From a phage: a stretch of DNA of 41,168 nt. Shown piece by piece: positions 6,759 through 34,617 of this stretch; the stretch's first letter is position 1, and each line of letters starts with the position of its first letter. Under the pieces are notes generated by a model. That model saw nothing but the letters and a program-made list of their open reading frames with translations. It did not search any database and was not told the DNA's origin. Location of the stretch: the NCBI GenBank assembly GCA_013027745.1, contig GCA_013027745.1_4329.1. One strand, 5' to 3'. The position numbers and the translations under genes are program-made.

Positions 6759-6865
6759 TCTTTAATCCTTTGGTTAAGAGGTTACAGGTTAAGGAAAATG
6801 CGCCAGACGGGAACCACCCGCTTTTCGTGTGCGACACTAGGCGCAAAATAATTCTAACACATTAC

Positions 6866-6894
6866 TTGCACACCCCAACATAATAGGATACTAT
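6866..6894 (+). promoter_or_regulatory. sigma70-like promoter, class I (TTGCAC-N17-TACTAT) with AATAG-N4-CTATT palindrome
   Basis: -35 TTGCAC 6866-6871, -10 TACTAT 6889-6894; extended identity ccccaacataataggatactattca shared with three other promoters. Confidence 0.6.
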
Positions 6895-6935
6895 TCACTT
6901 ACACCAACAATGTTAACTCAAACAGGAGCTACACC

Positions 6936-7127
6936 ATGACTGGCATTACTATGTTCTTCTTAATCATTATCGTTTTAGTTTATTTTATCCCGTTTTTAGT
7001 AGCCCATATGCGTGGCCATAAAGCGAAACTAGCCATATTCATGGCTAATCTGTTTCTTGGCTGGGTTCTGCTGCCATGGATATTTATTTTAATCTGGGCG
7101 TGCAACTCGAATGTCAAAGAGAAGTGA
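6936..7127 (+). CDS. superinfection immunity (Imm-like) small membrane protein
   Basis: 63 aa, two TM segments; motif YFIPFLVA...RGH...ANLFLGW...W...LIWA resembles T4 Imm-type proteins. SD aacaggag upstream. Confidence 0.65.
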   Translation: MTGITMFFLIIIVLVYFIPFLVAHMRGHKAKLAIFMANLFLGWVLLPWIFILIWACNSNVKEK

Positions 7128-7165
7128 GCTAGTATAGGACAAATCCTAAACACGAGGAAGTAAGC

Positions 7166-8296
7166 ATGGCCCGGAAGAAAATAACCGACGAACAATTACA
7201 GGAAGAATTGAACGCCGGGATGAAGAATATAGATATAGCCCGTAAATACGGCATCTCAGACCGCGTAATTCGTATACGTAAAGCGAAACTGGCTAAGAAA
7301 GGCGTAGGTCACGGGCGTGACGTTAGCCACCTTGTACCAGACGGATACAAGATTAAAGGCACATCGTCGCTGGTGGACGAGTTCGGCAACACTAAGTTGC
7401 AATGGGTTAAGACTGATACCGATGCCGAACGTCAGGTCGAGTTGATGAAAGCCGTAATCGAAGGCATGAAGTCAGAGATTACCCCGGTTGCACCTGTTAA
7501 AGCCGTTCGCACCAAACGAGACGACAAGCTACTTAATCTTTACACTGTGTCTGATTTCCATCTCGGTATGCTGGCTTGGGCCGACGAGAGCGGCGACGAC
7601 TGGGACATGAAGATTGCAGAAGACCTGTTCTCCCGATGGTTCGATGCAGCATTTCAGAAAGCACCAGATGCCGGAACAGGAGTTATTAACCTGCTTGGGG
7701 ACTTCGCACACTTCGATAGTCTTGATGCCGTCACCCCTGAGTCGCGCAATGTATTAGACGCTGATACTCGCTATCAGAAACTGGTCCGCTACATGATTCG
7801 TATGGTCCGACGTGTTGTTGATATGGCGCTGGTTAAACACAGGACTGTGAAACTTCTTGTCGTACAGGGGAATCATGACCCTGTAGGCTCTGTGTGGCTG
7901 GCTGAGATGTTCAGTACGCTGTACGACAATGATCCTCGTGTGCTCGTCGATACGTCGCCGGATGTTTACAAGATGGTCCAACACGGCAAAACTACGCTGT
8001 TCTTTCACCACGGGCATAAAGCCCGATTCGACGCTATTGAACCGGTTATGATTGCCAAGTTCCGTAAAGCATTCGGAGAGAGCGTTTACAGCTACGCCCA
8101 CGTAGGCCACCTGCACCACCAGAAGATTGTAGAAAGCCGTAACATGGTTGTTGAGCAGCACCGCACCCTAGCGGCTAAAGATGCCTACGCCTCCCGCGGC
8201 GGATGGATGTCAGGCCGTAGTGCAAATGTAATTACTTATAGCGCCGAATATGGTGAGGTCGCACGTTTAACTATTTCACCGGAGATGCTGGGATGA
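7166..8296 (+). CDS. HTH-fused calcineurin-like metallophosphoesterase
   Basis: N-terminal HTH (IDIARKYGISDRVIRIR), then phosphoesterase motifs DFHLG, GDFAHFD, GNHD, FFHHGH, GHLHH. Confidence 0.75.
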   Translation: MARKKITDEQLQEELNAGMKNIDIARKYGISDRVIRIRKAKLAKKGVGHGRDVSHLVPDGYKIKGTSSLVDEFGNTKLQWVKTDTDAERQVELMKAVIEGMKSEITPVAPVKAVRTKRDDKLLNLYTVSDFHLGMLAWADESGDDWDMKIAEDLFSRWFDAAFQKAPDAGTGVINLLGDFAHFDSLDAVTPESRNVLDADTRYQKLVRYMIRMVRRVVDMALVKHRTVKLLVVQGNHDPVGSVWLAEMFSTLYDNDPRVLVDTSPDVYKMVQHGKTTLFFHHGHKARFDAIEPVMIAKFRKAFGESVYSYAHVGHLHHQKIVESRNMVVEQHRTLAAKDAYASRGGWMSGRSANVITYSAEYGEVARLTISPEMLG

Positions 8297-8523
8297 CTTC
8301 AAAATACAACCGAACAATGACAAACATTCACGGCAGCACTATGACAGTAGACGTTTATGATGTTCTCCGTGCTTTCGACATCCGGGACCCGGCACTACAG
8401 CACGCATTGAAGAAGCTATTGTGTATGGGCCTTCGCGGACATAAAGACACCGGAACCGACTTAGCGGAAGCAATTGAAAGTCTGGAGAAGTTACGGGAGT
8501 ACCGGAGTAATATTGATGAGTGA
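8293..8523 (+). CDS. hypothetical protein (moron operon)
   Basis: 76 aa ORF, ATGA overlap with the phosphoesterase stop. Confidence 0.45.
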   Translation: MTSKYNRTMTNIHGSTMTVDVYDVLRAFDIRDPALQHALKKLLCMGLRGHKDTGTDLAEAIESLEKLREYRSNIDE

Positions 8524-8689
8524 AAATATTATGAAAACAATATATGTAATCCGAGTATACGACGAAAAATGGGACGAGTGGGTTGATATTTGCGCCGTAG
8601 GTAGCAATGAAGAGGCCGTCAAAGAGATGGCAGAACGAAGTGGACGAGGTCAGTTAACTAGCTTCGACGAAATACCATTCAAAAGTTAG
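8516..8689 (+). CDS. hypothetical protein (moron operon)
   Basis: In-frame ATG at 8516 (MSENIMKTIYV...) with GGAG upstream; overlaps the previous stop. Confidence 0.4.
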   Translation: MSENIMKTIYVIRVYDEKWDEWVDICAVGSNEEAVKEMAERSGRGQLTSFDEIPFKS

Positions 8690-8695
8690 TAAGAA

Positions 8696-8715
8696 AAGGC
8701 CCCTTTCGGGGCCTT
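8696..8715. terminator. bidirectional rho-independent terminator (conserved cassette copy 1)
   Basis: aaggcccc-tttc-ggggcctt hairpin flanked by A-run and T-run; between convergent genes. Confidence 0.7.
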
Positions 8716-15565: not shown

Positions 15566-15712
15566 CAATAGAGTATGGCCCTTCCGAACGCGTCAGCGTA
15601 ACTACACTCAGGACTTACGTCCCGCTCCGTTACCTGCCCGCGCCGCGGTCGCTTGTTCATACTTCACAAGCTCAGGTGGAGCTTAGCACATTTTTAGTGA
15701 AAAGTCAACTAT
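15566..15712. repeat. ~147 bp intergenic repeat, copy A (copy B at 28382-28529)
   Basis: Conserved 5' block (caatagaNtatggcccttccgaa) and 3' block; 34 nt identical core ccgcggtcgcttgttcatacttcacaagctcagg at 15643-15676. Confidence 0.7.
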
Positions 15713-15774
15713 TCGAATAGTTTATTCCAACATTTACAATTCGGTGGAATAACTGGAATGGGTAAATAAATAGT

Positions 15775-15803
15775 TTGCGTACCCCAACATAATAGGGTAC
15801 TAT
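15775..15803 (+). promoter_or_regulatory. sigma70-like promoter, class I, with operator palindrome
   Basis: TTGCGT-N17-TACTAT; accccaacataatagggtactattca; drives the 15831 moron. Confidence 0.55.
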
Positions 15804-15830
15804 TCAGTTAACTTAAACAGGAGGTGTAAA

Positions 15831-16115
15831 ATGACACACAAATTTAAAGGTACAGACGGTGAATGGGTTAATCGTGGAACGGCTATCTGGGCGGGTGATG
15901 TTTATGTGGCGGAGGTAATGAGTATGCGGGAGAAGGCCTCAGTGAAATTGGCTAACGCAAAACTTATTTCCTCAGCACCTGAATTAATTGAAGCCCTTCG
16001 CCAGCTTCGCGATTACGTTGAGGATGTTTGTGTAGTATCCCCTGAGGATTGTCATAAGGACCACCCATTAAATCTGGCAAACAGAGCAATCGAGAAAGCA
16101 TTAGGAAAGAAATAA
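15831..16115 (+). CDS. hypothetical protein (moron with own promoter and terminator)
   Basis: 94 aa ORF, SD aggagg, opposite orientation to the surrounding head genes. Confidence 0.55.
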   Translation: MTHKFKGTDGEWVNRGTAIWAGDVYVAEVMSMREKASVKLANAKLISSAPELIEALRQLRDYVEDVCVVSPEDCHKDHPLNLANRAIEKALGKK

Positions 16116-16119
16116 AACT

Positions 16120-16140
16120 AAGGCCCCGTAATGGGGCCTT
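16120..16140. terminator. bidirectional rho-independent terminator (conserved cassette copy 2, inverted)
   Basis: aaggcccc-gtaat-ggggcctt followed by tttta. Confidence 0.7.
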
Positions 16141-16605: not shown

Positions 16606-18496
16606 TAACCCCTTTCAGATAATCAGCGACACGTTTATCGAGTTCCGCCATCTGCTTAAGCGTGAGCGGATTCCCGAAACCATCTACAGATATTACGCGA
16701 AACTCTTCCGGCGATATACCGCTGTTGCGGAAAATCTTACCACGAACAGGGCCGAGGGCCTGGTCCTGGAACCATGCAGGTTGTTGTTTCAGGAACTCGT
16801 AATAGGTTGTGTCCGCGCTTACCTGAGTGCCGCCGTCCGCGCCCTTAGCCGCGCGTTTTGCGCCTTTATCTAGGAAATCGAACTCTGAGCTGATTACGGG
16901 TGCGGTTGTGGAGCGACAGTTATGTGCTATAATTCCATTTGCAAGATACCAGTTCTGTTCATTTTCGAGGTTATAAACATGCCCGCAAAAATCAGCTTCA
17001 CTAAAGACCAAATCGACAACATCATCAAGCTCTACGCCGACGGCATCGGACCAGTTGAAATCGGAAAGATTATCGGCGTTTCGTGCAGCCCAGTTATACG
17101 CGTTCTCAGAGAGAACGGCGTTAGGATCCGCGGCGGCAGCGACGCTATGTTTATCAGAATGGCTAAAGCTACTCCTGAGGAGCGCCTCGCTCTCTCCGCC
17201 GCGGCGCATGAAGCTGTCCGAGGGAGAAAGGCCGACCATGCTGAACTGCTTCGCAGAGCCAAAGCCAGGGAGGGAGTCATCAACGCCGGCAGTCACTGGG
17301 AGTTCCTTGTCAATGATTTGCTTATTCAGACCGGACTTGACTTTATTCCAGGAAAGGCGGTCGACAAGTATAATCTCGACTTCGCCGTCGGTTCCGTCGC
17401 CGTGGAAGTCTTCGGGGGAGGTTGGGCTTGTACTGACCGCCGCCGGATTGACCGCTACATTAGCCGCACTAAACAAATCGGAGAACTTGGCTACAACGTT
17501 GTGTTCCTTATGCTTGAGAGAGAGCGCAGAGTCCTTAGCGCACACGAGCTTGTCGCCTATATTGAGAAGGCCGGAAGCAACCCAACCACGGGCAGTCAAT
17601 ACCTGGTGGTTTGGGGTGATAGACAAGGTGCGACCGGACTTTGTAGAGACATAGACTATAGGGCCTTTGTACGTCCGTTTAAAAATGTTAGAAACAGGGC
17701 TACCGGTAGATACTACAGTGTCCCCAAGTAAGCAATTAGGATGGGCCGGAGGCATCGGCCCTTTACCGATTTCCCACGTCATCCCGTCCCTGGCTCTGCA
17801 AATCGTGCTGGTACGGCTGTCCAGCGTTGACACCCACTCGTACTTCTCAATGATATCGTCGTTCTGGCGGTACGTCTCGTTACGGGCTTCGTTGGATACG
17901 TGGGACAGCGCGGTGCGAATTACCGTAGCCGCGTTACGTTCAGAGATGTCCGCCAGCCCACCGGCACCAACAACATTCTTAACAATCTGCCGTGTTGTCT
18001 GGCCTTGTACGAAACCCATCTTAACGCCAGTTACCAGGCGCGCGACCTCCGCTTCGCCCCAGCCAGACATCAGTTTAGTGAAGTCAACAGGCTTGTCGCT
18101 TAACGATAGGGGTTGAAACTCGGCAGCAGACCACACCTGCTCAGCGGTCGGGATAACAAATTCAGCGTTGACGTTAGCCGTGAGTGTTTTCACATTCCAC
18201 TCAGCCTCATACGCTGCCAGTTCCTTAAGGTCTTCGGTCAGCTTTGTTTGCCAGTCTCCGGCTAGCCCTGTCAGTGCTTCTTCTAAGTCGCGTAACAGTT
18301 TATTGAGACGCGCGGTGCTTCTCCCGTCGTCGCCGAACAACAGCACCTGCCGTTTGATTTCATCCCGCATCTCCTGAATGAACGGTGCGAGGTCTTTCAC
18401 TTCGCCAGATGCGTTGCGTTGCAGCCAAATCTGGTGGCTGATTAGTGATGTCAGTAAGCTCATAAATAAACCCTGTGGCGCTAAAGTTAATAGCAT
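16580..18496 (-). CDS. head morphogenesis protein (MuF/SPP1 gp7-like) containing an intein
   Basis: 638 aa ORF between portal and scaffold; conserved AHPN-C site split by a Hint domain; predicted spliced product about 366 aa. Confidence 0.8.
   Translation of the reverse strand: MLLTLAPQGLFMSLLTSLISHQIWLQRNASGEVKDLAPFIQEMRDEIKRQVLLFGDDGRSTARLNKLLRDLEEALTGLAGDWQTKLTEDLKELAAYEAEWNVKTLTANVNAEFVIPTAEQVWSAAEFQPLSLSDKPVDFTKLMSGWGEAEVARLVTGVKMGFVQGQTTRQIVKNVVGAGGLADISERNAATVIRTALSHVSNEARNETYRQNDDIIEKYEWVSTLDSRTSTICRARDGMTWEIGKGPMPPAHPNCLLGDTVVSTGSPVSNIFKRTYKGPIVYVSTKSGRTLSITPNHQVLTARGWVASGLLNIGDKLVCAKDSALSLKHKEHNVVAKFSDLFSAANVAVNPAAVSTSPTSPEDFHGDGTDGEVEIILVDRLSWNKVKSGLNKQIIDKELPVTAGVDDSLPGFGSAKQFSMVGLSPSDSFMRRGGESEALLRSSFSHSDKHSVAAAADPNAVLSENAYNWAARNADNLSDFNWSDAVGVELDDVVDLVFSEADFCGHVYNLENEQNWYLANGIIAHNCRSTTAPVISSEFDFLDKGAKRAAKGADGGTQVSADTTYYEFLKQQPAWFQDQALGPVRGKIFRNSGISPEEFRVISVDGFGNPLTLKQMAELDKRVADYLKGVNDGLFQSN
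16919..17734 (-). mobile_element. intein (Hint domain, 272 aa, residues 255-526 of the host protein)
   Basis: Block A CLLGDTVV, block B GRTLSITPNHQVLT, blocks F/G VYNLENEQNWYLANGIIAHN followed by +1 Cys; no in-frame LAGLIDADG/HNH motif seen in the central region. Confidence 0.8.
16979..17731 (+). CDS. HTH plus PD-(D/E)xK (Vsr/DUF559-like) endonuclease-like protein encoded antisense inside the intein
   Basis: 250 codons from ATG 16979 (GAGGT SD 7 nt upstream) to TAA 17729-17731; HTH IGPVEIGKIIGVSCSPVIRVLRENG; core YNLDFAVGSVAVEVFGGGW...DRRRIDRY...GELGYNVVF. Confidence 0.5.
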   Translation: MPAKISFTKDQIDNIIKLYADGIGPVEIGKIIGVSCSPVIRVLRENGVRIRGGSDAMFIRMAKATPEERLALSAAAHEAVRGRKADHAELLRRAKAREGVINAGSHWEFLVNDLLIQTGLDFIPGKAVDKYNLDFAVGSVAVEVFGGGWACTDRRRIDRYISRTKQIGELGYNVVFLMLERERRVLSAHELVAYIEKAGSNPTTGSQYLVVWGDRQGATGLCRDIDYRAFVRPFKNVRNRATGRYYSVPK

Positions 18497-18506
18497 ACTA
18501 TAAGAA

Positions 18507-22038: not shown

Positions 22039-22257
22039 TCATATATGTTCCAGTGATTCTCTCCAGTCTGTATCTTGGTTCTCTACACACCCGAGGCATT
22101 GTACTTCTCCATACTCGCTCGACCACACCCATTCAAGACCCTCGATAACGGGTTCGTACTCGAAGCCGTACACGGCCCCGTCTTCATCCGTGGCAACATA
22201 GTTTATATTATCCCACACATGAAAATGTTTACCTTTATATTCTATAGTACGACTCAT
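22039..22257 (-). CDS. hypothetical protein
   Basis: 72 aa ORF, last gene of a translationally coupled small-gene operon. Confidence 0.45.
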   Translation of the reverse strand: MSRTIEYKGKHFHVWDNINYVATDEDGAVYGFEYEPVIEGLEWVWSSEYGEVQCLGCVENQDTDWRESLEHI

Positions 22258-22490
22258 TTACCACTCTCCTCTTTAGCAATGCGTTGCTCAGTTTTAGTGA
22301 TACCACGGCGCGTGAATAACACCGGGCTTGTCTTAACGTGCGTCATGAGGCGGTTGTTATAAATTACGTGGCGCTCGCAATCAACGTCTTTACTGTACTT
22401 GGCAATCGTCATTTCGTTGATGCCGGTTTGTCGGCATGTCTCCGCCATCGTGCCAAATTCTTTAATCAGGTTCGGAATGCTGGTAATCAA
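22254..22490 (-). CDS. HTH DNA-binding protein
   Basis: 78 aa; helix-turn-helix-like segment MAETCRQTGINEMTIAKY. Confidence 0.5.
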   Translation of the reverse strand: MITSIPNLIKEFGTMAETCRQTGINEMTIAKYSKDVDCERHVIYNNRLMTHVKTSPVLFTRRGITKTEQRIAKEESGK

Positions 22491-23882: not shown

Positions 23883-23911
23883 AATATAATAGGGTCGAGG
23901 GTAGTAGTCAA
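23883..23911 (-). promoter_or_regulatory. sigma70-like promoter (TTGACT-N17-TATATT) for the 23849-22039 operon
   Basis: On the minus strand: ttgact, 17 nt spacer, tatatt; just downstream of the lysis terminators. Confidence 0.5.
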
Positions 23912-23933
23912 CTAGTCATTACAGAAAATAGAT

Positions 23934-24933: not shown

Positions 24934-25234
24934 CCGGGCCTCCTCGACGTGAGATGTATTCTCCGGCAACAATACCGGAGAGACGGGAATAAATAGGCAT
25001 CCAGAGAATAGCGATGATAAAGCCCAGGCCAGCGATTTCACGGTCGCCCGTGATACCGAACCATTGAGCTGCAAGAGGGGCGCCAAATACGGCGCAGGTG
25101 AAGCCGGTTGCGATAAAGCAGAAGCCATCGATAGGGCCAGAAATAACGGACTTATGTTGTCGTAGTCCGATGACCCCTCCGGCGAGTGCGGCAGCGAGAA
25201 GCCAGCCTGTCACTGTTTCAGTAAATTTATCCAA
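24926..25234 (-). CDS. holin
   Basis: 102 aa, multiple TM segments, charged C-terminus, directly upstream of the endolysin. Confidence 0.6.
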   Translation of the reverse strand: MDKFTETVTGWLLAAALAGGVIGLRQHKSVISGPIDGFCFIATGFTCAVFGAPLAAQWFGITGDREIAGLGFIIAILWMPIYSRLSGIVAGEYISRRGGPDE

Positions 25235-25309
25235 GATGAATCCTCCAGGTGCGTATTAAGTATGCAGTAACTGGAGGATACCACGGGTAGGAATTATCCT
25301 AATAACGGT

Positions 25310-25636
25310 TTATTTGTGTCTCCAGATGTATTGCCGTCTCTGCGGTTTCGTCGGAATATCATCGTACCCCAGCGATTTCCAGTAATTAAATAGCCGATTA
25401 GCGATAGCTGCGCGTTCCTGTGTTTTAAACTCACCGAGATTCACGGCCTTCCCGTTCTGGAATCCACAGGCGCGGACAGCTTTACGCCGTTCTGCCAGTT
25501 CATTGTAAGTTGCGTTACGCGCTCGCGTCTTAACTTTAGGCGACAGCGGCGCAAGGCCGCTTCGTTTCAGGATGTCAGTTGCTAACGACATCACTCCACC
25601 CCTTCCACATGTGTAACTGACCCACAGTTCGCGCAC
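25310..25636 (-). CDS. hypothetical protein
   Basis: Track ORF; the start may be the internal MSLATD at 25591. Confidence 0.4.
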   Translation of the reverse strand: MRELWVSYTCGRGGVMSLATDILKRSGLAPLSPKVKTRARNATYNELAERRKAVRACGFQNGKAVNLGEFKTQERAAIANRLFNYWKSLGYDDIPTKPQRRQYIWRHK

Positions 25637-25869
25637 TCGACGTAATCCGGGAACTGGTCTTTGTATTTCTGTAACTCAGCGTTTACTTCTGCCAGTCTTG
25701 ACACAAGCCCCTCGATTTCCATGTCCGTAGCGGTTATGTAGTCCTGGAAACTGCCGTCCAGTTCCTTGTAGTCCCCATAACGCACCCAGTCACCGTCTGC
25801 GTCTTTCTCTAAGTCAATATGCCCTGTAACACAGTCTTCTTTTAAATCGTATCTCTGCACCATAATCAC
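25591..25869 (-). CDS. hypothetical protein
   Basis: 92 aa acidic ORF, ATGA overlap with the upstream gene. Confidence 0.45.
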   Translation of the reverse strand: MIMVQRYDLKEDCVTGHIDLEKDADGDWVRYGDYKELDGSFQDYITATDMEIEGLVSRLAEVNAELQKYKDQFPDYVECANCGSVTHVEGVE

Positions 25870-26087
25870 TTCTCCTGTTTACCAAGTCGCTTAGGTGAGC
25901 AGATAGCGCGTACCTCTGAATCGTTGGGCTTATCGCCCTGAAACAGAAAGTGCGCGTTCTCTGCGGCGCGTGCTGCTGACTGGCACGCCTCTAATGAATA
26001 AAACGTTTCTGATGCCGCCAGTTGCATCTGGCCTGCGGACAATACCCAGATAAATAAGATGCTGGTCATCAGAAGTATTTCCCGCAC
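25866..26087 (-). CDS. small secreted/periplasmic protein
   Basis: Signal-peptide-like N-terminus (MTSILFIWVLSAGQMQLAAS) if started at 26069; three Cys. Confidence 0.45.
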   Translation of the reverse strand: MREILLMTSILFIWVLSAGQMQLAASETFYSLEACQSAARAAENAHFLFQGDKPNDSEVRAICSPKRLGKQEK

Positions 26088-26497
26088 GTTTTACATACTT
26101 TCGTACCGAACGGCGCGGAGCCATCTGTTATTACATAATAGAAACTGTGGGGGCATTCCTCGGCTTTAGTCTCACCGCAATTAATACATACCGCGGGTGA
26201 CTTACCCATAACGAATCGCCAGTTATGGTGGCATTCATGAGTATCGTCCTTACGGCAACCAGATTGCTCAGGTCCGTGTTCACCTTTGCGGATAAGTTTG
26301 TACGCCTCCACGTCACCAGTAGCTTGGGCCAACGCAATACGCAACTCCTTAATCTGCACCGAAGCATCACGTAACTGATTCTTAAGTGACTGCACCTCAT
26401 GCGCCAGGTCTTCACACTGTTGCTTGTACGGGTTGTTAGTTAACTGCTGCCGTAGTTGGTTAAGCAGGAACTCGATTACTGCGTCGTTGTTACTCAT
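26069..26497 (-). CDS. coiled-coil protein with Cys/His-rich C-terminal region
   Basis: 142 aa; C-terminal CxxC...C...CxxC pattern. Confidence 0.5.
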   Translation of the reverse strand: MSNNDAVIEFLLNQLRQQLTNNPYKQQCEDLAHEVQSLKNQLRDASVQIKELRIALAQATGDVEAYKLIRKGEHGPEQSGCRKDDTHECHHNWRFVMGKSPAVCINCGETKAEECPHSFYYVITDGSAPFGTKVCKTCGKYF

Positions 26498-26645
26498 CGC
26501 CGTTCTCCGACTTCTCGGTCAATACTATTTCGTCGCCTACTGTCTGTACGTCGAACCCTTGCAGCTTAGCGAAATGTAATGTTTGCTCTAACATACTTTT
26601 TGCCATTTCCTCAGCGTACATTGCTTGCACCACGAAATTATTCAT
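26490..26645 (-). CDS. hypothetical small protein
   Basis: Hand-derived 51 aa ORF overlapping neighbours at both ends. Confidence 0.3.
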   Translation of the reverse strand: MNNFVVQAMYAEEMAKSMLEQTLHFAKLQGFDVQTVGDEIVLTEKSENGDE

Positions 26646-26775
26646 CGTCTTCACCCCTTTTCTCATCGACCCCGACTAGCAGCGATTTAGTGTCACCGTC
26701 GCACACCGAAGTGCTACCCATTATTTCGTAAGCGTCTACCAGTTCACCTAATGCCCAGCTACCGTACCAGCCCAT
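26638..26775 (-). CDS. hypothetical small acidic protein
   Basis: Hand-verified 45 aa ORF (MGWYGSWALGELVDAYEIMG...), SD gagaggagag upstream, first gene after promoter. Confidence 0.35.
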   Translation of the reverse strand: MGWYGSWALGELVDAYEIMGSTSVCDGDTKSLLVGVDEKRGEDDE

Positions 26776-26804
26776 CTTCTCTCTCCTCTCGTTTCGATAA
26801 CTGA

Positions 26805-26833
26805 ATAGTAGTCTATTATATCTGTGTGTGCAA
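26805..26833 (-). promoter_or_regulatory. sigma70-like promoter, class I, minus strand
   Basis: Reverse complement reads TTGCAC-N17-TACTATTCAGTTATCGAAACGAGAGGAG; palindrome aatagtagtctatt at 26804-26817. Confidence 0.55.
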
Positions 26834-26840
26834 GTAAATT

Positions 26841-27014
26841 TTATTGGTGTGTTATTGAATCGATGAACGCCTGTAACTCGCGCTCCGCTTCTGCTTCTCT
26901 TTCTTCAAGCGACCAGGTACTGGATTCCTCTGTTGCCGTTGCTGAATCGGTTTTCACATCAATCATCGTGTCGATTAACGTGATTAGTCGTTCGGCCTGT
27001 TCTTTAGTAACCAT
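26841..27014 (-). CDS. hypothetical small acidic protein
   Basis: Hand-verified 57 aa ORF (MVTKEQAERLITLIDTMIDV...), SD gcaggaga. Confidence 0.35.
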   Translation of the reverse strand: MVTKEQAERLITLIDTMIDVKTDSATATEESSTWSLEEREAEAERELQAFIDSITHQ

Positions 27015-27147
27015 TATTGCATCTCCTGCAATAGTCGCTTCGATTGTCGCGTTTGGTGAAATAGAACAAAAATAAGAAAAATGATACGCTGCTGTGTAGC
27101 AGCGTAAGTCACTCAGTAAAATCCCAAACTATTGTTACAATATAACA

Positions 27148-27342
27148 TCACACATCAGGCGGCTCTGGTAACGGCATCCAGTGCGTCACTTCATCTCGCG
27201 AAAACCACCCAACCCCTGTGACATACCAGGCGCCATTTCTATCGTTGAACCATGCCACTCTGGAAACCATATCCATGTCGGTTATTATCACGTCACGGCA
27301 CGCCGTAGGCATCCGCTTACTACACTTAATCCACTTGCTCAT
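27148..27342 (-). CDS. DUF551-like protein
   Basis: 64 aa; C-terminal THWMPLPEPP motif. Confidence 0.55.
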   Translation of the reverse strand: MSKWIKCSKRMPTACRDVIITDMDMVSRVAWFNDRNGAWYVTGVGWFSRDEVTHWMPLPEPPDV

Positions 27343-27345
27343 AAA

Positions 27346-27489
27346 TCACCTCGTATTCATCACAGTTCTAACACCAGCTTTCCACGCCCGCCACGCGAGA
27401 CGCGTCTTAACATTCAGGTACTCTTTCTTTGAACCCTTGTTAACCGGCAGACCCTCGACTACCGCCCACCGTTCGAATGCTTCTCTCAT
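27346..27489 (-). CDS. hypothetical small protein
   Basis: Hand-derived 47 aa ORF between two track ORFs. Confidence 0.3.
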   Translation of the reverse strand: MREAFERWAVVEGLPVNKGSKKEYLNVKTRLAWRAWKAGVRTVMNTR

Positions 27490-27492
27490 AAC

Positions 27493-27693
27493 TTAGTCCT
27501 CCAGAACTTCGCATTCACGGTCGCGTATTAACAGTTCCTCGCCACGGTGTTCAACTAGGTGACCATAAACATTACTGAATGTGACCTCGAACTCATCTCC
27601 GACTGAGATACCGAAGTCACGTAACGAAGGGTCGCCATAATCCGGCGGCGGAACATAATCAACATCAGTTATACGAATTCTCATTAACGGCAA
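27493..27693 (-). CDS. hypothetical protein
   Basis: 66 aa ORF in the early minus operon. Confidence 0.45.
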   Translation of the reverse strand: MPLMRIRITDVDYVPPPDYGDPSLRDFGISVGDEFEVTFSNVYGHLVEHRGEELLIRDRECEVLED

Positions 27694-27977
27694 CCTCCCT
27701 CAGAGTCGTCGGCCCGAGCATCATGATTCGATGCCGTTCTCATAAACAATTTGCCCTTGCGCTGTAACAAGTCCATCGTTACCGCGCCAGCCCCTGACTT
27801 ATTAGGGCGACGCAGTATGCTAAAGTTCCATACCCTGGCCTTTGTTACGTCTCTGGCGTTACACACCCACAGAGCACCATTTTCTCTTAGTTCCAGTAAA
27901 TCAGAAATGTTGAAATTATTTACCGGGATAAACCCGTTAATGAACTGGAGTTCGCATTGAGGTAATTCTTCCATCAC
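27684..27977 (-). CDS. hypothetical protein
   Basis: 97 aa ORF in the early minus operon. Confidence 0.45.
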   Translation of the reverse strand: MMEELPQCELQFINGFIPVNNFNISDLLELRENGALWVCNARDVTKARVWNFSILRRPNKSGAGAVTMDLLQRKGKLFMRTASNHDARADDSEGGCR

Positions 27978-28165
27978 TTCGCCCCTTTGAATTTAAAATT
28001 GTTGCCGATGAGTTTCAGATTATCGCGTAAGGCGAACCCGGGTTTCTTTCTTACCAGACCCCATACGTCAACCAGCTTATCCTCGTCATACTCGTTCTCG
28101 TCCTGCAACACTATTACGTACTGTTCGCCTCGCTTCGATTTAACCAACTGACCACGTTTAAACAT
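27974..28165 (-). CDS. hypothetical protein (first gene of early minus operon)
   Basis: Likely ATG at 28165 (MFKRGQLV) with GAGGAG SD; directly downstream of the class I promoter. Confidence 0.5.
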   Translation of the reverse strand: MFKRGQLVKSKRGEQYVIVLQDENEYDEDKLVDVWGLVRKKPGFALRDNLKLIGNNFKFKGAK

Positions 28166-28199
28166 AACCCTCACTCCTCTGTCTCGTTTCGATAAGTGA

Positions 28200-28228
28200 A
28201 TAGTATCCTATTATGTTGGGGCGTGCAA
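28200..28228 (-). promoter_or_regulatory. sigma70-like promoter, class I, minus strand
   Basis: Reverse complement reads TTGCAC-N17-TACTATTCACTTATCGAAACGAGA; palindrome aatagtatcctatt at 28199-28212. Confidence 0.6.
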
Positions 28229-28381
28229 GAGAATAGTTACGTTGCCGTTGTGATTCTTCAGGTTTAATAGGATAGCGAGCGAAACGAAACGAACGGGGTG
28301 CCGAAGGCACCAAGAGTGAGTGAGTGAGCTTGCGGTTCTAACCTACGGCAAATCAGTAACTTAGATACTTAGGCGGGAATT

Positions 28382-28529
28382 ACAATAGACTATGGCCCTT
28401 CCGAATGCGCCAGCGAGGCTCACTCCACACGTCGAGACGTGCTCGTTTCGCCTGCCGCGCACCGCGGTCGCTTGTTCATACTTCACAAGCTCAGGACGAG
28501 CTTACCATATTTCTTAGTAAAAGTCAATA
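28382..28529. repeat. ~147 bp intergenic repeat, copy B
   Basis: Matches copy A at 15566-15712; identical 34 nt core at 28461-28494; variable middle. Confidence 0.7.
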
Positions 28530-28574
28530 TCAGTAGCATCTTTTGCATCTTAGTAACTTTGTGCGGTGTTTTGG

Positions 28575-28603
28575 TTGCTTTTACATTCCCGCTATCCTAT
28601 ACT
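28575..28603 (+). promoter_or_regulatory. sigma70-like promoter (TTGCTT-N17-TATACT) for the AlpA-like gene
   Basis: -35 at 28575-28580, -10 at 28598-28603, then SD aggag and ATG 28635. Confidence 0.5.
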
Positions 28604-28634
28604 CGTTTTCACCAAATCAACAGGAGATATAAAA

Positions 28635-28817
28635 ATGCAGCATTACATGACACAGAATGAGGTAGCCGAACGTATCGGGGTGACACGCCAGACAATTAAC
28701 AACTGGTTGCGCAGTGGTAAATTCCCGGATTGTTGTATTAAAGTTATGGGCCGCCGTTTGCCTGGTACATTTGACCGTAATAAAGTTGAAGCGTGGATTA
28801 AGGAGAACGTGGAATGA
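28635..28817 (+). CDS. AlpA/excisionase-like HTH DNA-binding protein
   Basis: MTQNEVAERIGVTRQTINNWLRSGKFP...VEAWIKE resembles AlpA-family winged HTH regulators. Confidence 0.65.
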   Translation: MQHYMTQNEVAERIGVTRQTINNWLRSGKFPDCCIKVMGRRLPGTFDRNKVEAWIKENVE

Positions 28818-29026
28818 TTGGGCGTATGGGTTGTTACTTTGAGAACGGTAAAGTTAAATACTGGTTTAAGTTTGCGTCAGAAATTACTGACAGTGGATTC
28901 TACGCAGAAATATGTAAGCCTAATCATTTGTCGGAACCGACGCGCATTATTAAGATGCCAGTAGACGTGTTAAGTAAATGTCGTTTCTATGATTCAGCGC
29001 ACGCGTGGTTTTCTGGCGGTAAATAA
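28814..29026 (+). CDS. hypothetical protein
   Basis: 70 aa ORF, ATGA overlap with the upstream gene. Confidence 0.45.
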   Translation: MIGRMGCYFENGKVKYWFKFASEITDSGFYAEICKPNHLSEPTRIIKMPVDVLSKCRFYDSAHAWFSGGK

Positions 29027-29094
29027 AAGAAACCCCAACGCCAGAACGTCGGGGCCGAAGCACAAATCATCAAAGTAAGCACAAGGATTATACA

Positions 29095-29223
29095 ATGACG
29101 AAGTTAATAGTTCCACAGCTACGCCGTCAGAAACACGGCGCTGACTTCTTCGCACCGGTAAAGATGAACCGCGCAATGCGCCGTATGCAGGAAGCCTTAG
29201 AACGTGCGGAGAAAAAGAAATGA
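29095..29223 (+). CDS. small basic protein
   Basis: Hand-verified 42 aa ORF (MTKLIVPQLRRQKHGADFF...AEKKK); its TGA overlaps the primase ATG. Confidence 0.35.
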   Translation: MTKLIVPQLRRQKHGADFFAPVKMNRAMRRMQEALERAEKKK

Positions 29224-31481
29224 ATATTGTTTTTGCAACGCTGCGCAACACATTCGATAAAAACCCAGTAGCGCGTGAGATGCCGCTGGGGCAGTTTGTG
29301 GAGTATGTCTGCGACACATCGAAGCGTTTATCCGTGGATCCGTCGTGGTCTAAGGAAGAGTACGACGCTGCCAAGATTAAGCAGAAAGCTATTGCGCCTG
29401 TTGGGGGCCGCCGTAAAAACGCTATCCTGGAAGACAGTGTGGTTAAGTTCGACTTCGACCATCTCAACCGTACTCAGTACCGAGACCTGACACGCAAATT
29501 CAAGAACGCGACGTTCTTCAACATTCTGCACACAACGGCATCGCATCAGCATGCGTGTAAAAACGGGGATTACGCATTCCGCGTTCTGGTTCCGGCTCGC
29601 ACTCCGTTTAACTCTAACGATGCGTGGATGGTGCAACGGGCTATTTGTGCAGAGTTAGAAATAGACGAAGCGTTGCGCGACCACTGCACGGAAGATGGCA
29701 ACCGCCTTATCTACCTGCCGCACAAAGAGTCGAAGATAACGGTTACAGAAGGGCGTGTTATCCGTGCCGAGCGGTACATCAAGAAAGCCGAAGAGATGGG
29801 GTTGCGTAAACGCGAATCTAAGACACTTGCCGCCGATGAGCATGGGCTTAACGCTGACATTGCGCATTTCTGCGAAGCTGAGCTCGGCCTTGACGCTTTA
29901 TCCTCCGGCCGAGGGTATGAAGTGCCATGCCCCAACGAGCATCTGCATACAGGCAAAGGCTCCACCAGCATCATGCTCGATGGTAAAGAAGTGCGCTTTG
30001 TATGCCAGCACACAAACAATGGCGCTTGCACTGAGCTTAACCGTCGGCAACATTTGGCCCTGCGTATGTGCGGCCTTCCGGATGAGCTTAACGTAGACAA
30101 GCAACCTATCAGTATTAACAGCATTCGTGCGGCTTTGCCTGACTTGCCTGACGAAGAGATTGAAGAACTGCACCGCACAGAGAACGAGGCGCCTGTAACT
30201 TGCACGCTGGAAGACCTTGAAGACGAGCCGGAAGTAGAAAAAGAACCCGCTTACTCCGTCGTAGATGGCCTTATGCAGACTAACGAATCGTTCTACATTT
30301 GCGCAAAGTCTCACACGGGTAAGTCAACATTTAGTATGGCGATTGACGCTGCTATAGCTGCCGAAAAGAGATATGCGTTCGGCGGGGCTGAGGTTGCAGA
30401 AGGACACGCATTTATCTTCGCCGGTGAAGGTGCGCAGTCGTTCGAGAGGCATAAAAAATCTTTGCAGATTGCTCTTGGCGATAACCTGGACCGCTTACAC
30501 ATTATCGATTGTGTTGCGGATGGTTGTAACTTACTTGACGAAGCATGGCGGCGTCAGGCGGTGAGAATGATGCGCCGTGTTGCCGGTGAAGAGAAAATTG
30601 TAAAGGTTACGTTCGACACCCTACAAACCTGTATACCTGGCTTCGACGAAAACGACAACCGGTCTATGAAAGAAGCGGCGCAGGCTCTTAATGAAATAGC
30701 ATCGATGCTTAATGCTGCGGTGGGGGCTATGGTGCACCCGACTAAAAATATCGACGAAACAGTACCGTCGGAGAACGGCATGATGCCGAAGGGTGGAAGT
30801 GACTTTCACAACTCCATCGATAACGGTATGTTCCTGCACAAGCCGGACAACGACAATAATTTAGAGATAAACCTGTATCACATAAAGAACCGAAACGGAG
30901 AACGGCAGAAAGCCAGAGGATTCGTAATACAGAAGATTCAGATAGCGGAACCACCAGAAAAGAAAGAACCAACTCACAACTTTATGGGACTCCCGGAAGG
31001 GTACAGTAGTGACGATGTCCGCGATTTTGACGCAGGAAACCCGCACATCGATGTCTTTGTTAACTTCAACGCCTTCTCTGTTTTCGTGAAGAAAGTAGAA
31101 GGCATGACCGACGAACAGAAGGAAGCCGTTAAAGAAAAGGTAGGCCAGTTCGAGAAAATGGACACCAAAGAGGCTACGGTTATTTACGCATTGGGTAAAT
31201 TGCAGGAACAGGGCGACGATAAGCGAGGGTTCTCTATGTCGGCTATCGTCAAAGCCGCGAAAGAAGATAGTTACGGCGTACCGATTAACGCTAATAACGA
31301 CCTTCGAAAGAAACTTGAAGAGATGCACGAGGCCGGGATTATCGTCTCGGGTCTGGATAACAACAACAGACCCATACCTAAGCAGTACCGACTGCCGTGG
31401 GGCATAAACGACAACAAGATTCCGAAGACAATATACGAACCGAATGAGATGTTAACAGTGACCGAGGAGGATTTAGAATAG
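29220..31481 (+). CDS. DNA primase/helicase (AEP-type primase-polymerase domain plus P-loop helicase domain)
   Basis: N-terminal AEP motifs FDFDH and ASHQH; central Walker A AKSHTGKST; 753 aa; ends in VTEEDLE. Confidence 0.7.
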   Translation: MNIVFATLRNTFDKNPVAREMPLGQFVEYVCDTSKRLSVDPSWSKEEYDAAKIKQKAIAPVGGRRKNAILEDSVVKFDFDHLNRTQYRDLTRKFKNATFFNILHTTASHQHACKNGDYAFRVLVPARTPFNSNDAWMVQRAICAELEIDEALRDHCTEDGNRLIYLPHKESKITVTEGRVIRAERYIKKAEEMGLRKRESKTLAADEHGLNADIAHFCEAELGLDALSSGRGYEVPCPNEHLHTGKGSTSIMLDGKEVRFVCQHTNNGACTELNRRQHLALRMCGLPDELNVDKQPISINSIRAALPDLPDEEIEELHRTENEAPVTCTLEDLEDEPEVEKEPAYSVVDGLMQTNESFYICAKSHTGKSTFSMAIDAAIAAEKRYAFGGAEVAEGHAFIFAGEGAQSFERHKKSLQIALGDNLDRLHIIDCVADGCNLLDEAWRRQAVRMMRRVAGEEKIVKVTFDTLQTCIPGFDENDNRSMKEAAQALNEIASMLNAAVGAMVHPTKNIDETVPSENGMMPKGGSDFHNSIDNGMFLHKPDNDNNLEINLYHIKNRNGERQKARGFVIQKIQIAEPPEKKEPTHNFMGLPEGYSSDDVRDFDAGNPHIDVFVNFNAFSVFVKKVEGMTDEQKEAVKEKVGQFEKMDTKEATVIYALGKLQEQGDDKRGFSMSAIVKAAKEDSYGVPINANNDLRKKLEEMHEAGIIVSGLDNNNRPIPKQYRLPWGINDNKIPKTIYEPNEMLTVTEEDLE

Positions 31482-31498
31482 GTAAAAAGAAAGGGGCG

Positions 31499-31714
31499 TT
31501 AAGCCCCTTCGCCTAACGCCAGCCACTTGGCATCTACTTGCAGCACTTCCGCCAGTTTAAACAGCGTCGTCGGACGTACGTCCTGAGTTACTCCAAGTGC
31601 CAGCTGGTTAATCGCGCCCTGGGAAACGCCAGCCAGGACCGCCAGACGGCGCTGGGAGATGCCGAGTTCTTTGCGGCGTTGTTCTACACGGATGCCTAGT
31701 TCAGATGGTTGCAT
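31499..31714 (-). CDS. Cro/CI-type (XRE family) HTH transcriptional regulator
   Basis: 71 aa; RRKELGISQRRLAVLAGVSQGAINQLALG HTH; SD AAGGAG; divergent from a plus promoter. Confidence 0.75.
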   Translation of the reverse strand: MQPSELGIRVEQRRKELGISQRRLAVLAGVSQGAINQLALGVTQDVRPTTLFKLAEVLQVDAKWLALGEGA

Positions 31715-31744
31715 GTCAGTTACTCCTTAGTCAGTTGATATGTG

Positions 31745-31758
31745 AATAGTACCATATT
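31745..31758 (-). promoter_or_regulatory. -10 region and near-palindromic operator for the HTH regulator gene
   Basis: Reverse complement contains TACTATTCA (-10) in aatagtaccatatt; no good -35 found. Confidence 0.4.
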
Positions 31759-31778
31759 AATTATTTTAGAAAAGCCCA

Positions 31779-31808
31779 TTGACAACATGAATAGTTCGCT
31801 ATTATAGT
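31779..31808 (+). promoter_or_regulatory. sigma70-like promoter, class II (TTGACA-N18-TATAGT) with operator palindrome
   Basis: TTGACA 31779-31784; aatagttcgctatt 31790-31803; TATAGT 31803-31808. Confidence 0.6.
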
Positions 31809-31840
31809 TAGCCTATATCAAACGAGAGGAGAGAAACAAA

Positions 31841-31990
31841 ATGACCAATAACCGCAAAGCGAAGATTCTGTTAGGCCTTGATATTGCATTTGGGGCTAAA
31901 GAAACCGCACGATACCGCGTAAGCAACAATCGCGTTGGCTTCTTCGACAAAGCTACAGGTCAGTTAGTTAAAACCGTTAAGTATAAATAA
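31841..31990 (+). CDS. small basic protein (first gene of plus early operon)
   Basis: Hand-verified 49 aa ORF (MTNNRKAKILLGLDIAFGAKE...); SD gagaggagag. Confidence 0.4.
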   Translation: MTNNRKAKILLGLDIAFGAKETARYRVSNNRVGFFDKATGQLVKTVKYK

Positions 31991-32005
31991 ACAGGAGAGA
32001 AACAA

Positions 32006-32473
32006 ATGTTAGAGAAATTCTTAGTATTACTGGAACGTTTCGTAGTTGCACATGAACTGATTGCTGCGAACAGTGCGAAACAGGTTGTCGTTGCGGAAAC
32101 TGCAACAATCGAGCCTACTGTTGCAAAAGAAGCAACAAAAGAAATACCGGTCGAAGGTGAAGACATCGTCGACACTAAACCGGCAGAAGAAGAGAAGCCG
32201 AAACGCAAGCCGCGTAAAGCTAAAGTAGAGGAACCAACGCCAGAGCCGGAAGAGAAGGAAGAAGTCGATTATCAGTCTCTGCGTGACCAGATTCAGGCTA
32301 TCGACGATGCGATTAACGAAGGTCCGAGCGATGCCGCGTGCGATGATTCTGACGAACTGCTGGAAGAGTTCACCGGTAAGAAAATGAAGATTGCTGCGAT
32401 TAAAGACGAAGACCTGGCCGAATATCTTGAGCGCCTGACGGCAATCAAGAACAAGTATTTCGAAGAAGAATAA
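32006..32473 (+). CDS. strongly acidic protein (candidate DNA mimic / anti-restriction)
   Basis: 155 aa; my count gives 41 D/E versus 22 K/R; SD aggagag; second gene after the switch promoter. Confidence 0.55.
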   Translation: MLEKFLVLLERFVVAHELIAANSAKQVVVAETATIEPTVAKEATKEIPVEGEDIVDTKPAEEEKPKRKPRKAKVEEPTPEPEEKEEVDYQSLRDQIQAIDDAINEGPSDAACDDSDELLEEFTGKKMKIAAIKDEDLAEYLERLTAIKNKYFEEE

Positions 32474-32500
32474 CTATCTCGCGGCCTTCGGGCCGCTTTA
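32470..32500 (+). terminator. possible rho-independent terminator / attenuator
   Basis: gcggcc-ttcg-ggccgc hairpin followed by tttaact; coordinates approximate. Confidence 0.4.
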
Positions 32501-32516
32501 ACTGAGGGTCGGAATT

Positions 32517-32804
32517 ATGAAATACGAAGATATGAGTGATTTTGAAATTAACTGCCGTGTGCACGCAGAGGTTATGCAAATTTCAGGATTGAATTCGTTT
32601 AAGGCCAAAGACTACTGCAACAACCCATCTGATGCATGGCCTGTAATAATTGATAATCACATATCAATTGAATGCGTTACGGTTAACCGACATACGTTTA
32701 CATATCGCGTGTATCACTCGGCATCATTCACCAAAAGTACGCACGAAAACCCCCTTCGTGCCGCCATGATTGTCTTTCTGAAAATGCAGGAGAAGGCGCA
32801 ATGA
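32517..32804 (+). CDS. hypothetical protein
   Basis: 95 aa ORF, SD-like gagggtcgg upstream. Confidence 0.45.
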   Translation: MKYEDMSDFEINCRVHAEVMQISGLNSFKAKDYCNNPSDAWPVIIDNHISIECVTVNRHTFTYRVYHSASFTKSTHENPLRAAMIVFLKMQEKAQ

Positions 32805-33073
32805 TTTACCAACTCTACCGCGCCGTAGACAGGCGGGATAACACAGAGGCGCTATGGCTATTGCGTGCGCCGTCCGGTGCGCACCAGATGGAAGAGATGG
32901 CGTACTTAGGCAAAGTACCGCAGCCCAAAGATATAGGCCGTCACGTGTCGCAGATTAAGCGCACGACTTTCGCCAAGCCAGACTTTTATGTCTTCGAGTC
33001 GATGTATGGGTGGGCCATGCACTGCGAACATAAGACACGGCATTTAATTGACCAATGGGAGAACAGGGTATGA
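32801..33073 (+). CDS. hypothetical protein
   Basis: 90 aa ORF, ATGA coupling at both ends. Confidence 0.45.
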   Translation: MIYQLYRAVDRRDNTEALWLLRAPSGAHQMEEMAYLGKVPQPKDIGRHVSQIKRTTFAKPDFYVFESMYGWAMHCEHKTRHLIDQWENRV

Positions 33074-34344: not shown

Positions 34345-34592
34345 TTCGTAAAATGTTCAGGGCGCTTGGTGGGCTTATAGCGTGTATTGTTTTCTGGGTT
34401 CTTATGCTGCCGCTAACGCTACCAACATTTATCTTAATGTGTATTACAGTATGTATCGCACAAACTCGCGACATCGAAGCCATCCTGAGCGATAAATCGT
34501 GGAAGACACAGGCGCTTCGATTCATAAACAACATGAAATGGCCAAGCAAGTATATTGAGATAGTTGAGAAAATAACTGGCTGGAAGGGTTGA
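34341..34592 (+). CDS. small membrane protein
   Basis: 83 aa, two hydrophobic segments; ATG overlaps the nuclease stop with GAGGAGG SD inside the nuclease 3' end. Confidence 0.5.
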   Translation: MIRKMFRALGGLIACIVFWVLMLPLTLPTFILMCITVCIAQTRDIEAILSDKSWKTQALRFINNMKWPSKYIEIVEKITGWKG

Positions 34593-34617
34593 CACCTGAA
34601 TAGTTAGCTATTATAGT
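34589..34617 (+). promoter_or_regulatory. sigma70-like promoter, class II (TTGACA-N17-TATAGT) with operator palindrome
   Basis: TTGACA 34589-34594; aatagttagctatt 34599-34612; TATAGT 34612-34617. Confidence 0.65.

Follow-up and report, generated by a model that had tools for sequence, protein, structure and literature searches.

The window analysed here, a stretch of 41,168 bp (NCBI GenBank assembly GCA_013027745.1, contig GCA_013027745.1_4329.1; all positions refer to it), is the genome of a Kagunavirus (Guernseyvirinae), and at least eight of its predicted promoters carry in their core a 14-bp inverted repeat of the form AATAG-N4-CTATT (AATAGNNNNCTATT), in the following called the dyad. Across most of its replication half the window is about 89% identical to Kagunavirus Escherichia phages, namely UTI89UKE1, G AB-2017, L AB-2017, fKuEco01, Golestan, and fBC-Eco01. 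According to the gene map, for which the annotated proteins of fKuEco01 were projected onto the window, the minus strand carries the structural, lysis, and packaging genes, and the plus strand holds two replication blocks (28635-31481 and 31841-40536). Between these blocks lies, on the minus strand, a gene for a helix-turn-helix (HTH) protein of 71 amino acids (aa), which is the candidate dimeric regulator considered below.

Seven exact copies of the dyad are present in the window (Table 1), compared with 0.06 expected, and none of 100 dinucleotide shuffles reached this number; with up to one mismatch allowed, ten copies are found and 0.95 expected. Among all palindromes of the type 5-N(0-8)-5 in the window, AATAG-N4 is the sole standout. 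The original prediction, made from the letters of this stretch, had listed eight positions of the palindrome, one of them (31745, AATAGTACCATATT) with a mismatch, and had called for a comparison with shuffled sequence. The motif search recovered all eight, as seven exact copies and one imperfect copy, and the number of copies is above chance; two further one-mismatch dyads, at 15700 and 18489, had been missing from that list. Six of the seven exact dyads lie wholly in non-coding DNA, which makes up 3,196 bp or 7.8% of the window (shuffling expectation 0.006). The seventh is situated within the final codons of the VRR-NUC gene, where the class II promoter at 38237-38265 is indeed embedded, as had been predicted.

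Concerning their position relative to sigma70-like promoter elements, most dyads fall into two classes, and this earlier division proved to be real. Class I (TTGCAC/TTGCGT-N17-TACTAT) comprises four sites, two per strand. Its dyad spans approximately -19 to -6 with the centre at about -12.5, the right half-site makes most of the -10 hexamer, and at each site a Shine-Dalgarno sequence with its start codon follows 30-40 nt downstream. Class II (TTGACA/G-N17/18-TATAGT) comprises three plus-strand sites at the replication genes, with TTGACA-18, TTGACA-17, and TTGACG-17 preceding TATAGT; its dyad spans approximately -25 to -12 (centre at about -18.5), fills the spacer, and touches the -10. These three are among the five best sigma70 matches in 25000-41168, agreeing with the consensus at 10-11 of 12 positions, and class I sites agree at 7 of 12, A-11 and T-7 being present. 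The features of sigma70-dependent promoters, i.e., hexamers 17 +/- 1 bp apart and genes with Shine-Dalgarno sites downstream, are found. Of the class I description given originally, the geometry holds at all four sites, but the extended core 'ccccaacat' occurs at three of them and not at 26804. The assignment of the eighth site to the regulator gene's promoter stands as far as a TACTAT -10 at 31745 is concerned, but a recognisable -35 was not found at this promoter.

The repeated unit can be extended to 18 bp (TGAATAG-N4-CTATTAT), which is slightly asymmetric and takes opposite orientations to transcription in classes I and II. The dyad registers of these two classes are about 6 bp apart, and a third register exists in a promoter that we call class III (23916-23883). 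The latter comes after a terminator and is predicted to drive the minus-strand genes from 23849 to the terminase and head genes; at its position, one-mismatch dyads are found in Kagunavirus, Jerseyvirus, and Cornellvirus-type relatives. In class II, and among its orthologues, the distance from the dyad to the -10 is fixed and that to the -35 is not. By sequence geometry, then, the putative operators overlap the -35, the spacer, or the -10. The class I promoter at 6866-6894 would drive a cluster with genes for superinfection immunity (Sie), a metallophosphoesterase, and a kinase, and the class II promoter at 38237-38265 would drive the genes from 38299 onward, the helicase gene included. Both fKuEco01 and wksl3 retain the dyad at 18489. 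Promoter-like sites of the window that carry no dyad number at least five.

Table 1. Dyads, promoter-like sites without a dyad, and genes referred to in the text (strand as given for the promoter, the site, or the gene).
Feature	Positions	Strand	Sequence	Associated promoter, genes, or remarks
Exact dyad	6882-6895	+	AATAGGATACTATT	Class I, TTGCAC(6866-6871)-N17-TACTAT(6889-6894); orthologues exist
Exact dyad	15791-15804	+	AATAGGGTACTATT	Class I, TTGCGT(15775-15780)-N17-TACTAT(15798-15803); predicted to drive 94-aa moron
Exact dyad	26804-26817	-		Class I, TTGCAC(26833-26828)-N17-TACTAT(26810-26805); predicted to drive small genes, holins, endolysin
Exact dyad	28199-28212	-		Class I, TTGCAC(28228-28223)-N17-TACTAT(28205-28200); predicted to drive five small genes, 28174-27148
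One-mismatch dyad	31745-31758	-	AATATGGTACTATT	Overlaps TACTAT -10 (31751-31746) of the regulator gene's promoter
Exact dyad	31790-31803	+		Spacer of class II, TTGACA(31779-31784)-N18-TATAGT(31803-31808); divergent from regulator gene
Exact dyad	34599-34612	+		Spacer of class II, TTGACA(34589-34594)-N17-TATAGT(34612-34617); predicted to drive DUF2815 and DNA polymerase genes
Exact dyad	38247-38260	+		Spacer of class II, TTGACG(38237-38242)-N17-TATAGT(38260-38265)
Two-mismatch dyad	23903-23916	-	ACTAGTTGACTACT	Class III; dyad centre is the -35 of TTGACT(23911-23906)-N17-TATATT(23888-23883)
One-mismatch dyad	18489-18502		AATAGCATACTATA	After terminator 18522-18507, before head-morphogenesis gene; no visible -35
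One-mismatch dyad	15700-15713	-	AATAGTTGACTTTT	Dyad centre is the -35 TTGACT (15708-15703) of a minus-strand promoter; weak candidate
Dyad-free promoter candidate	~28569-28597		TTGCTT-17-TATACT	Primase operon
Dyad-free promoter-like sites			TTGACT-17-TAAGCT	Two copies
Dyad-free promoter-like site	24034-24006		TTGACA-17-GATACT	
Dyad-free promoter candidate		-	TTGGGG(6878-6873)-16-TAGAAT(6856-6851)	Tail-ward
Sie, metallophosphoesterase, kinase gene insertion	6936-8690	+		Gene map
94-aa moron open reading frame	15831-16115	+		No Pfam match
71-aa XRE/HTH_3 gene	31499-31714	-		Candidate dimeric regulator
VRR-NUC gene	37984-38268			Last codons hold dyad 38247
HTH_17/Cox-like protein, 60 aa	28635-28817			Heads primase operon
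NinH/Fis-like protein	22254-22490			

The 71-aa protein matches Pfam HTH_3 (E = 6e-13), and its best match among PDB entries (phmmer) is 434 Cro (E = 1.8e-6, residues 6-68, aligned end to end). Its AlphaFold2 model (pLDDT 79) has the five helices of the XRE helix-turn-helix fold and, in Foldseek, aligns with 434 Cro, the 434 repressor, and P22 c2 at TM 0.70-0.80, as well as with SinR, HipB, and C.AhdI at TM 0.7-0.8. The recognition helix reads S31-Q-G-A-I-N-Q37 and is invariant in all examined Kagunavirus copies but one (L039: SQSAINQ). The gene occurs in 549 phage records and in essentially every Guernseyvirinae genome; a large protein search for homologues returned only close relatives (20 proteins with at least 77% identity) and no independent lineages. 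Two dyads adjoin the gene, those at 31745 and 31790, which lie 31 and 76 bp upstream of its start codon (31714), and this arrangement is kept in Kagunavirus and Jerseyvirus relatives. The degenerate distal half-site of the dyad at 31745 is conserved as such in relatives, and this dyad is predicted to be a classic weak autoregulatory operator. Conserved DNA-binding candidates number three, namely the 71-aa HTH_3 protein, the 60-aa HTH_17/Cox-like protein, and the NinH-like protein.

The dyad was compared among about 58 loci from IMG/VR and GenBank (39 Kagunavirus, 12 Jerseyvirus, and 6 Cornellvirus-type). The Kagunavirus loci contain 175 perfect dyads, the next most frequent palindrome being found 36 times, and the Jerseyvirus loci contain 38 (next palindrome 13). 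At six orthologous sites, each represented by 29-40 distinct sequences, nucleotide diversity is 0.018 in the left and 0.013 in the right half-site, compared to 0.232 in the central 4 bp, 0.197 in the five bases upstream, and about 0.19 in the wider flanks; half-site diversity this low was reached in none of 20,000 permutations. At 31790, for instance, the left AATAG is kept in 35 of 35 and the right CTATT in 34 of 35 sequences, with seven variants of the centre and 11 variants of the linker between the -35 and the dyad, which is 4 or 5 nt long. In class II, one half-site falls into the spacer, a region in which sigma70 makes no base-specific contacts, and it is just as invariant as its partner beside the -10. 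The dyad is a real and strongly selected feature. Since the half-sites are near-invariant, whereas the central 4 bp and the flanks drift, it bears the signature of a site for a dimeric protein; such a 14-bp layout with conserved outer half-sites and a free centre would be the expected pattern for a symmetric protein dimer, and not for a polymerase element or for neutral inheritance from duplicated promoters.

The dyad is best read as a common operator overlaid on sigma70 promoters, and we assign a probability of roughly 55% to the reading that it is the operator for a homodimer of the 434-Cro-like 71-aa protein. Each recognition helix would read one AATAG half-site, and the central 4 bp, being unread, would be free to drift and may tune affinity as in phage 434. 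Because every dyad lies inside the polymerase footprint, occupancy should repress: an occupied operator on the -10, on the edge between spacer and -10, or on the -35 would exclude sigma70 RNA polymerase. The weaker operator at the regulator's own promoter would lead to negative autoregulation, and the promoters would form a graded series of affinities, set by differences in the centre and in the perfection of the half-sites, such that the regulator's promoter would be shut last. One small protein could in this manner throttle or time eight to nine transcription units on both strands, comprising replication, lysis, packaging/head, immunity, and moron functions. The circuit would be partial and not total, as at least five promoter-like sites are without a dyad. 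The original prediction of a dimeric phage regulator that coordinates early transcription is supported in its operator part, at the level of sequence, by the half-site constraint, the registers, the kinship with 434 Cro, and the 5-N4-5 dyads next to related HTH proteins of other phages, but the term 'early' is too narrow, since the sites also head the lysis, the packaging/head, and the superinfection-immunity/nucleotide-kinase units and the moron. A role of the dyad at the RNA level was considered too, but since the predicted transcripts start downstream of the dyad, this idea was given up.

The organization of this putative system is most similar to that of phage 434. Dimers of 434 Cro and of the 434 repressor bind the 14-bp sequence ACAA-N6-TTGT, making contacts to its outer bases (Gln28 to A1) and none to its centre, which nevertheless modulates affinity. 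The Gln of this helix type is kept in the 71-aa protein (S-Q-G-A-I-N-Q), which equals 434 Cro in size and shares with it the five-helix XRE fold, 434 Cro being the closest of the solved structures. In both cases the operators measure 14 bp, are conserved in their outer bases but free in the centre, and overlap core promoter elements, and the regulator gene is divergent from the early or replication operon, with operators between them. Despite this likeness, the half-site is AATAG in the window and ACAA in 434, the three-site tandem arrays are missing, and the operators are situated at 8-11 promoters across 41 kb, whereas those of 434 are confined to two control regions. Furthermore, the window and the annotated relative yielded neither an integrase nor a cI-like gene, the HTH-only 71-aa protein alone being present; with no partner long cI, no lysogeny module, and single instead of tandem sites, the arrangement is not that of a lambdoid cI-Cro switch.

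Two further types of system can be compared. The operators of P1 C1 and the 'stoperators' of mycobacteriophage L5 gp71 are many short sites on both strands that serve many transcription units, and in general terms the likeness consists in one regulator acting at many dispersed sites; these sites are, however, asymmetric and belong to temperate or plasmid-prophage states, whereas the window, from a group of phages considered virulent, has dyads that are always located on core promoters. With about 70-80 aa, the C proteins (C.AhdI, C.BclI) are small dimers of the XRE type; they match the 71-aa model in structure, bind dyads overlapping their own promoter, and exert concentration-dependent autoregulation. 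They act, in contrast, at one or two promoters of restriction-modification operons, and their C-boxes differ from the dyad in sequence and length.

Distant homologues of the regulator provide a further comparison. The locus L061, whose protein has the helix G-L-S-D-S-M-L-H-K, contains TGTAG-N4-CTACA three times around the HTH gene (at 9911, 10313, and 10342), and two of these dyads bracket a TTGACG -35. In L062, the dyad variants GGTAG and CGTAG are found, and in L158 (helix S-Q-T-K-I-A-N) AATAC-N4-GTATT is present at 695 and 720, on the -35 and the -10 of the upstream promoter. A helix start of Ser-Gln pairs with AATA half-sites and Ser-Asp with TGTA or GGTA, as seen in three lineages only. 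This is supportive of the view that the 5-N4-5 layout travels with this HTH lineage.

The motif itself is already published in relatives as a 'phage promoter' predicted by PHIRE. Seven 'phage RNA polymerase (RNAP) promoters' (PP1-PP7) with the consensus tgAATAGTa-ccTATTat-T are described for fBC-Eco01, the sequences in its Table S2 being the same as those of the window and located at the same genomic positions (PMC9825357), and seven PHIRE promoters are given for Golestan (PMC7203180). The regulatory element TAATAGTACCCTATTATGTT of the Jerseyvirus SGP-C is likewise the same sequence element at matching genomic positions. The element was treated in the fBC-Eco01 and SGP-C papers as a phage-polymerase promoter or left unexplained, and the sections considered of the genome papers on relatives do not mention its dyad symmetry, its registers relative to the sigma70 hexamers, or its link to the Cro-like gene. 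No published version of the operator interpretation was found in the literature searched; it would seem a reasonable step.

Taken literally, the published label means that the motif is a promoter consensus, read by RNA polymerase alone or by a factor-altered host polymerase, and that its symmetry is incidental. Each exact copy does fall on a promoter-like site that precedes an operon, and one half-site supplies or abuts the -10. The label of a 'phage RNAP promoter' is nevertheless untenable, there being no gene for a phage RNA polymerase: in the window and in annotated fKuEco01 the large open reading frames (ORFs) are assigned structural, packaging, or replication roles, every ORF of more than 300 aa has a function other than RNA polymerase or sigma, and a sigma-like match is absent among the small ORFs scanned, which yielded nothing relevant except a homing endonuclease of the HNH-AP2 type that relatives lack. 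Since, moreover, the dyad stands in different registers to -35 and -10 and in both orientations, the half-site in the spacer is as invariant as that at the -10 whereas the centre and the -35 linker drift, and polymerase contacts are not dyad-symmetric, we regard this explanation as improbable. The symmetry could also reflect bidirectional promoters, with each half-site acting as the -10 of back-to-back divergent promoters and with no need for a regulator, an idea suggested by the location of class I sites in divergent intergenic regions, by the complementary strand reading TATTAT, by the occurrence of TTAACA-17-TAGTAT at 6916-6888 (minus strand) in the consensus scan, and by the tail operon left of 6758, which needs a promoter within 6759-6935. 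The sites at 34599 and 38247, however, are located between or inside co-directional genes and keep both half-sites without a reverse -35, the TTAACA at 6916 is not conserved in relatives, and a better tail-ward promoter (Table 1) is situated outside the dyad. As this is also where the relatives place it, the idea, which we consider very improbable, was dropped.

It appears rather unlikely, too, that the dyad is the operator of another binder, i.e., of the HTH_17/Cox-like protein, the NinH/Fis-like protein, or a host factor. Both phage proteins are conserved DNA-binding candidates, and the HTH_17 gene is, by gene order only, probably the helix-turn-helix gene K1B4_008, reported among the four earliest genes of a relative; its candidate promoter is without a dyad, and the protein could therefore act on other promoters. 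In addition, the Cro-like proteins of Kagunavirus and Jerseyvirus differ in their recognition helix and share the site. On the other hand, no dyad adjoins the HTH_17 or the NinH-like gene, the outer-conserved, centre-free 14-bp layout is that of XRE dimers of the 434 type, and such dyads accompany Cro-like homologues in unrelated phages. Binding to direct repeats, or DNA bending of low specificity, is typical of HTH_17 proteins of the excisionase/Cox type and of NinH/Fis-like proteins, and 14-bp dyads are not their usual targets. Among host factors, we know of no E. coli regulator with the consensus AATAG-N4-CTATT; the ArgR, Fur, and CRP boxes, compared by eye, did not fit. A last variant leaves the Cro-like protein in place and gives it a dual role, in which it would repress the promoters it covers and activate weak neighbouring ones from about -44, the position from which lambda cI activates PRM. 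The main candidate is the tail-gene promoter, where 4 bp separate the end of the 6882 dyad from the poor -35 (TTGGGG) downstream of it, which puts the dyad centre at about -44 from the predicted start; the 'ccccaa' in the extended core of the original prediction is the complement of this -35, and the late tail genes would receive a positive input. The support for this variant is purely geometric, though; a partner promoter near 28199 is not clearly conserved and 15791 has none, so that the dual role is doubtful.

Several points weigh against the 71-aa protein as the reader of the dyad. The co-variation seen in distant homologues comes from three lineages only, and two further distant homologues (L042 and L055) show no obvious repeated dyad. 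Within the subfamily, co-variation of protein and site is not clean, because the helices of Kagunavirus (SQGAINQ) and Jerseyvirus (SQSLITH) differ and the AATAG half-site is the same, and because the sites of the Cornellvirus type (TQSAISH) are mostly hybrid and non-symmetric, reading A[A/T]TA-N6-TA[A/T]T. The half-site resembles a -10 hexamer (TACTAT, TATTAT), and part of its conservation is therefore owed to RNA polymerase. A sigma70 match of 7 of 12 in class I is more typical of activated promoters, and it is not obvious what a virulent phage would gain from repressing its lysis and head operons. The time-course transcriptome of K1B4, the only one from a relative, is too coarse for promoter mapping or for the assignment of temporal classes. 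As to the Cornellvirus type, an initial guess at the motif (ATTAGT-N3-AGTAT) was mis-specified; since the actual sites are mostly hybrid and non-symmetric, a clean compensatory switch of half-sites is not claimed. A brute-force search for repeated 14-mers in two Cornellvirus-type genomes yielded coding-bias noise only.

A far-reaching extension of the operator reading, which we hold to be unlikely, is that the Cro-like protein and its genome-wide operators form a silencing and activation circuit in these 'virulent' phages. With nearly all strong promoters covered, the genome could be kept in a quiet episomal carrier (pseudolysogenic) state, and in productive growth the protein would drive the tail operon from about -44. 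Three hints point in this direction. A Jerseyvirus with turbid plaques and immune 'lysogens' but no integrase has been reported. Secondly, pC16EC0033-2 (CP088689.1, L095), recorded in PLSDB as a circular 'plasmid' of 44,086 bp and belonging to the complete genome of an E. coli isolated from blood, is a Kagunavirus genome, and it is the only plasmid record matching the regulator region, with 92% identity. Finally, the geometry of the dyad at 6882 would suit activation. The plasmid record is anecdotal and could stem from contamination or from a chronically infected culture. None of 5,426 complete E. coli genomes (RefSeq) contained a match to the regulator region, and a Jerseyvirus probe matched no Salmonella plasmid.

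Phages of Kagunavirus and Jerseyvirus are widely isolated and are proposed for therapy and biocontrol. Reading the dyad as an operator yields a testable regulatory map with about nine operator-controlled and at least five operator-free units, and would explain why a 'repressor' gene belongs to the core of supposedly virulent phages. The compact pair of repressor and operator might be usable in phage engineering or as a genetic part. Should it be true that the repressor silences the whole genome, this would bear on the claim that these phages are safe because strictly lytic.

Some observations concern the surroundings of the promoters. A leader (A)TCGAAACGAGAGGAGAGA, which includes a Shine-Dalgarno site, is shared by three promoters (26776-26803, 28175-28198, and 31809-31840), the promoter at 31790 having the variant ATCAAACGAGAGGAGAGA; because the leader is common to three promoters, promoter and leader seem to have spread as one module. 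The tail-ward promoter TTGGGG-16-TAGAAT is followed by the leader TTTGCGCCTAGTGTCGCACACGAAAAG (6878-6820, minus strand). Its -10 and the leader are conserved across genera in front of the tail-assembly-chaperone gene, even where the chaperones are 49-60% identical, and the TTGGGG -35 is kept within Kagunavirus only. On the opposite strand (6798-6911), the counterpart of a 41-aa 'hypothetical protein' of fKuEco01 (KE1_021) runs across the dyad and class I promoter at 6866-6895, and its annotation in the published relatives is probably a spurious gene call.

The moron (15775-16140, plus strand) is self-contained, consisting of a class I promoter, the 94-aa ORF, and a bidirectional terminator (16120-16140); it sits within the minus-strand structural operon and is absent from fKuEco01. 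Its terminator belongs to a family of near-identical bidirectional hairpins (AAGGCCCC-N3/4-GGGGCCTT with A and T runs on either side), which are also found at 8696-8715, 35314-35339, and 40544-40563 and mark the borders of convergent gene blocks. The above-mentioned homing endonuclease (HNH_3 and AP2 domains, 165 aa, 38487-38984, plus strand) is situated where fKuEco01 has a C5 cytosine methyltransferase.

A search against Rfam gave no match anywhere in the window. A repeat of about 145 bp is present in two copies with 86-91% identity (15566-15708 and 28383-28527; minus-strand units at about 15708-15480 and 28527-28297), each with a minus-strand TTGACT-17-TAAGCT, a conserved 5' hairpin GCUUGU...ACAAGC, a variable middle part, and a terminator about 190 nt downstream. 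A 36-aa ORF annotated in relatives (hyp005) is intact in the first copy only. Neither unit matches Rfam and their fold z-scores are -2.2 and -0.2; they may represent a pair of small RNAs. At 24034-23935 (minus strand), a terminator is followed by TTGACA-17-GATACT and by a short unit (about 80 nt) with a second terminator at its end. Within this unit, AAAUCACCUCCUGUU matches the 3' end of the 16S rRNA (AUCACCUCCU); the unit could be a small RNA pairing with Shine-Dalgarno sequences, or the match could be due to chance.

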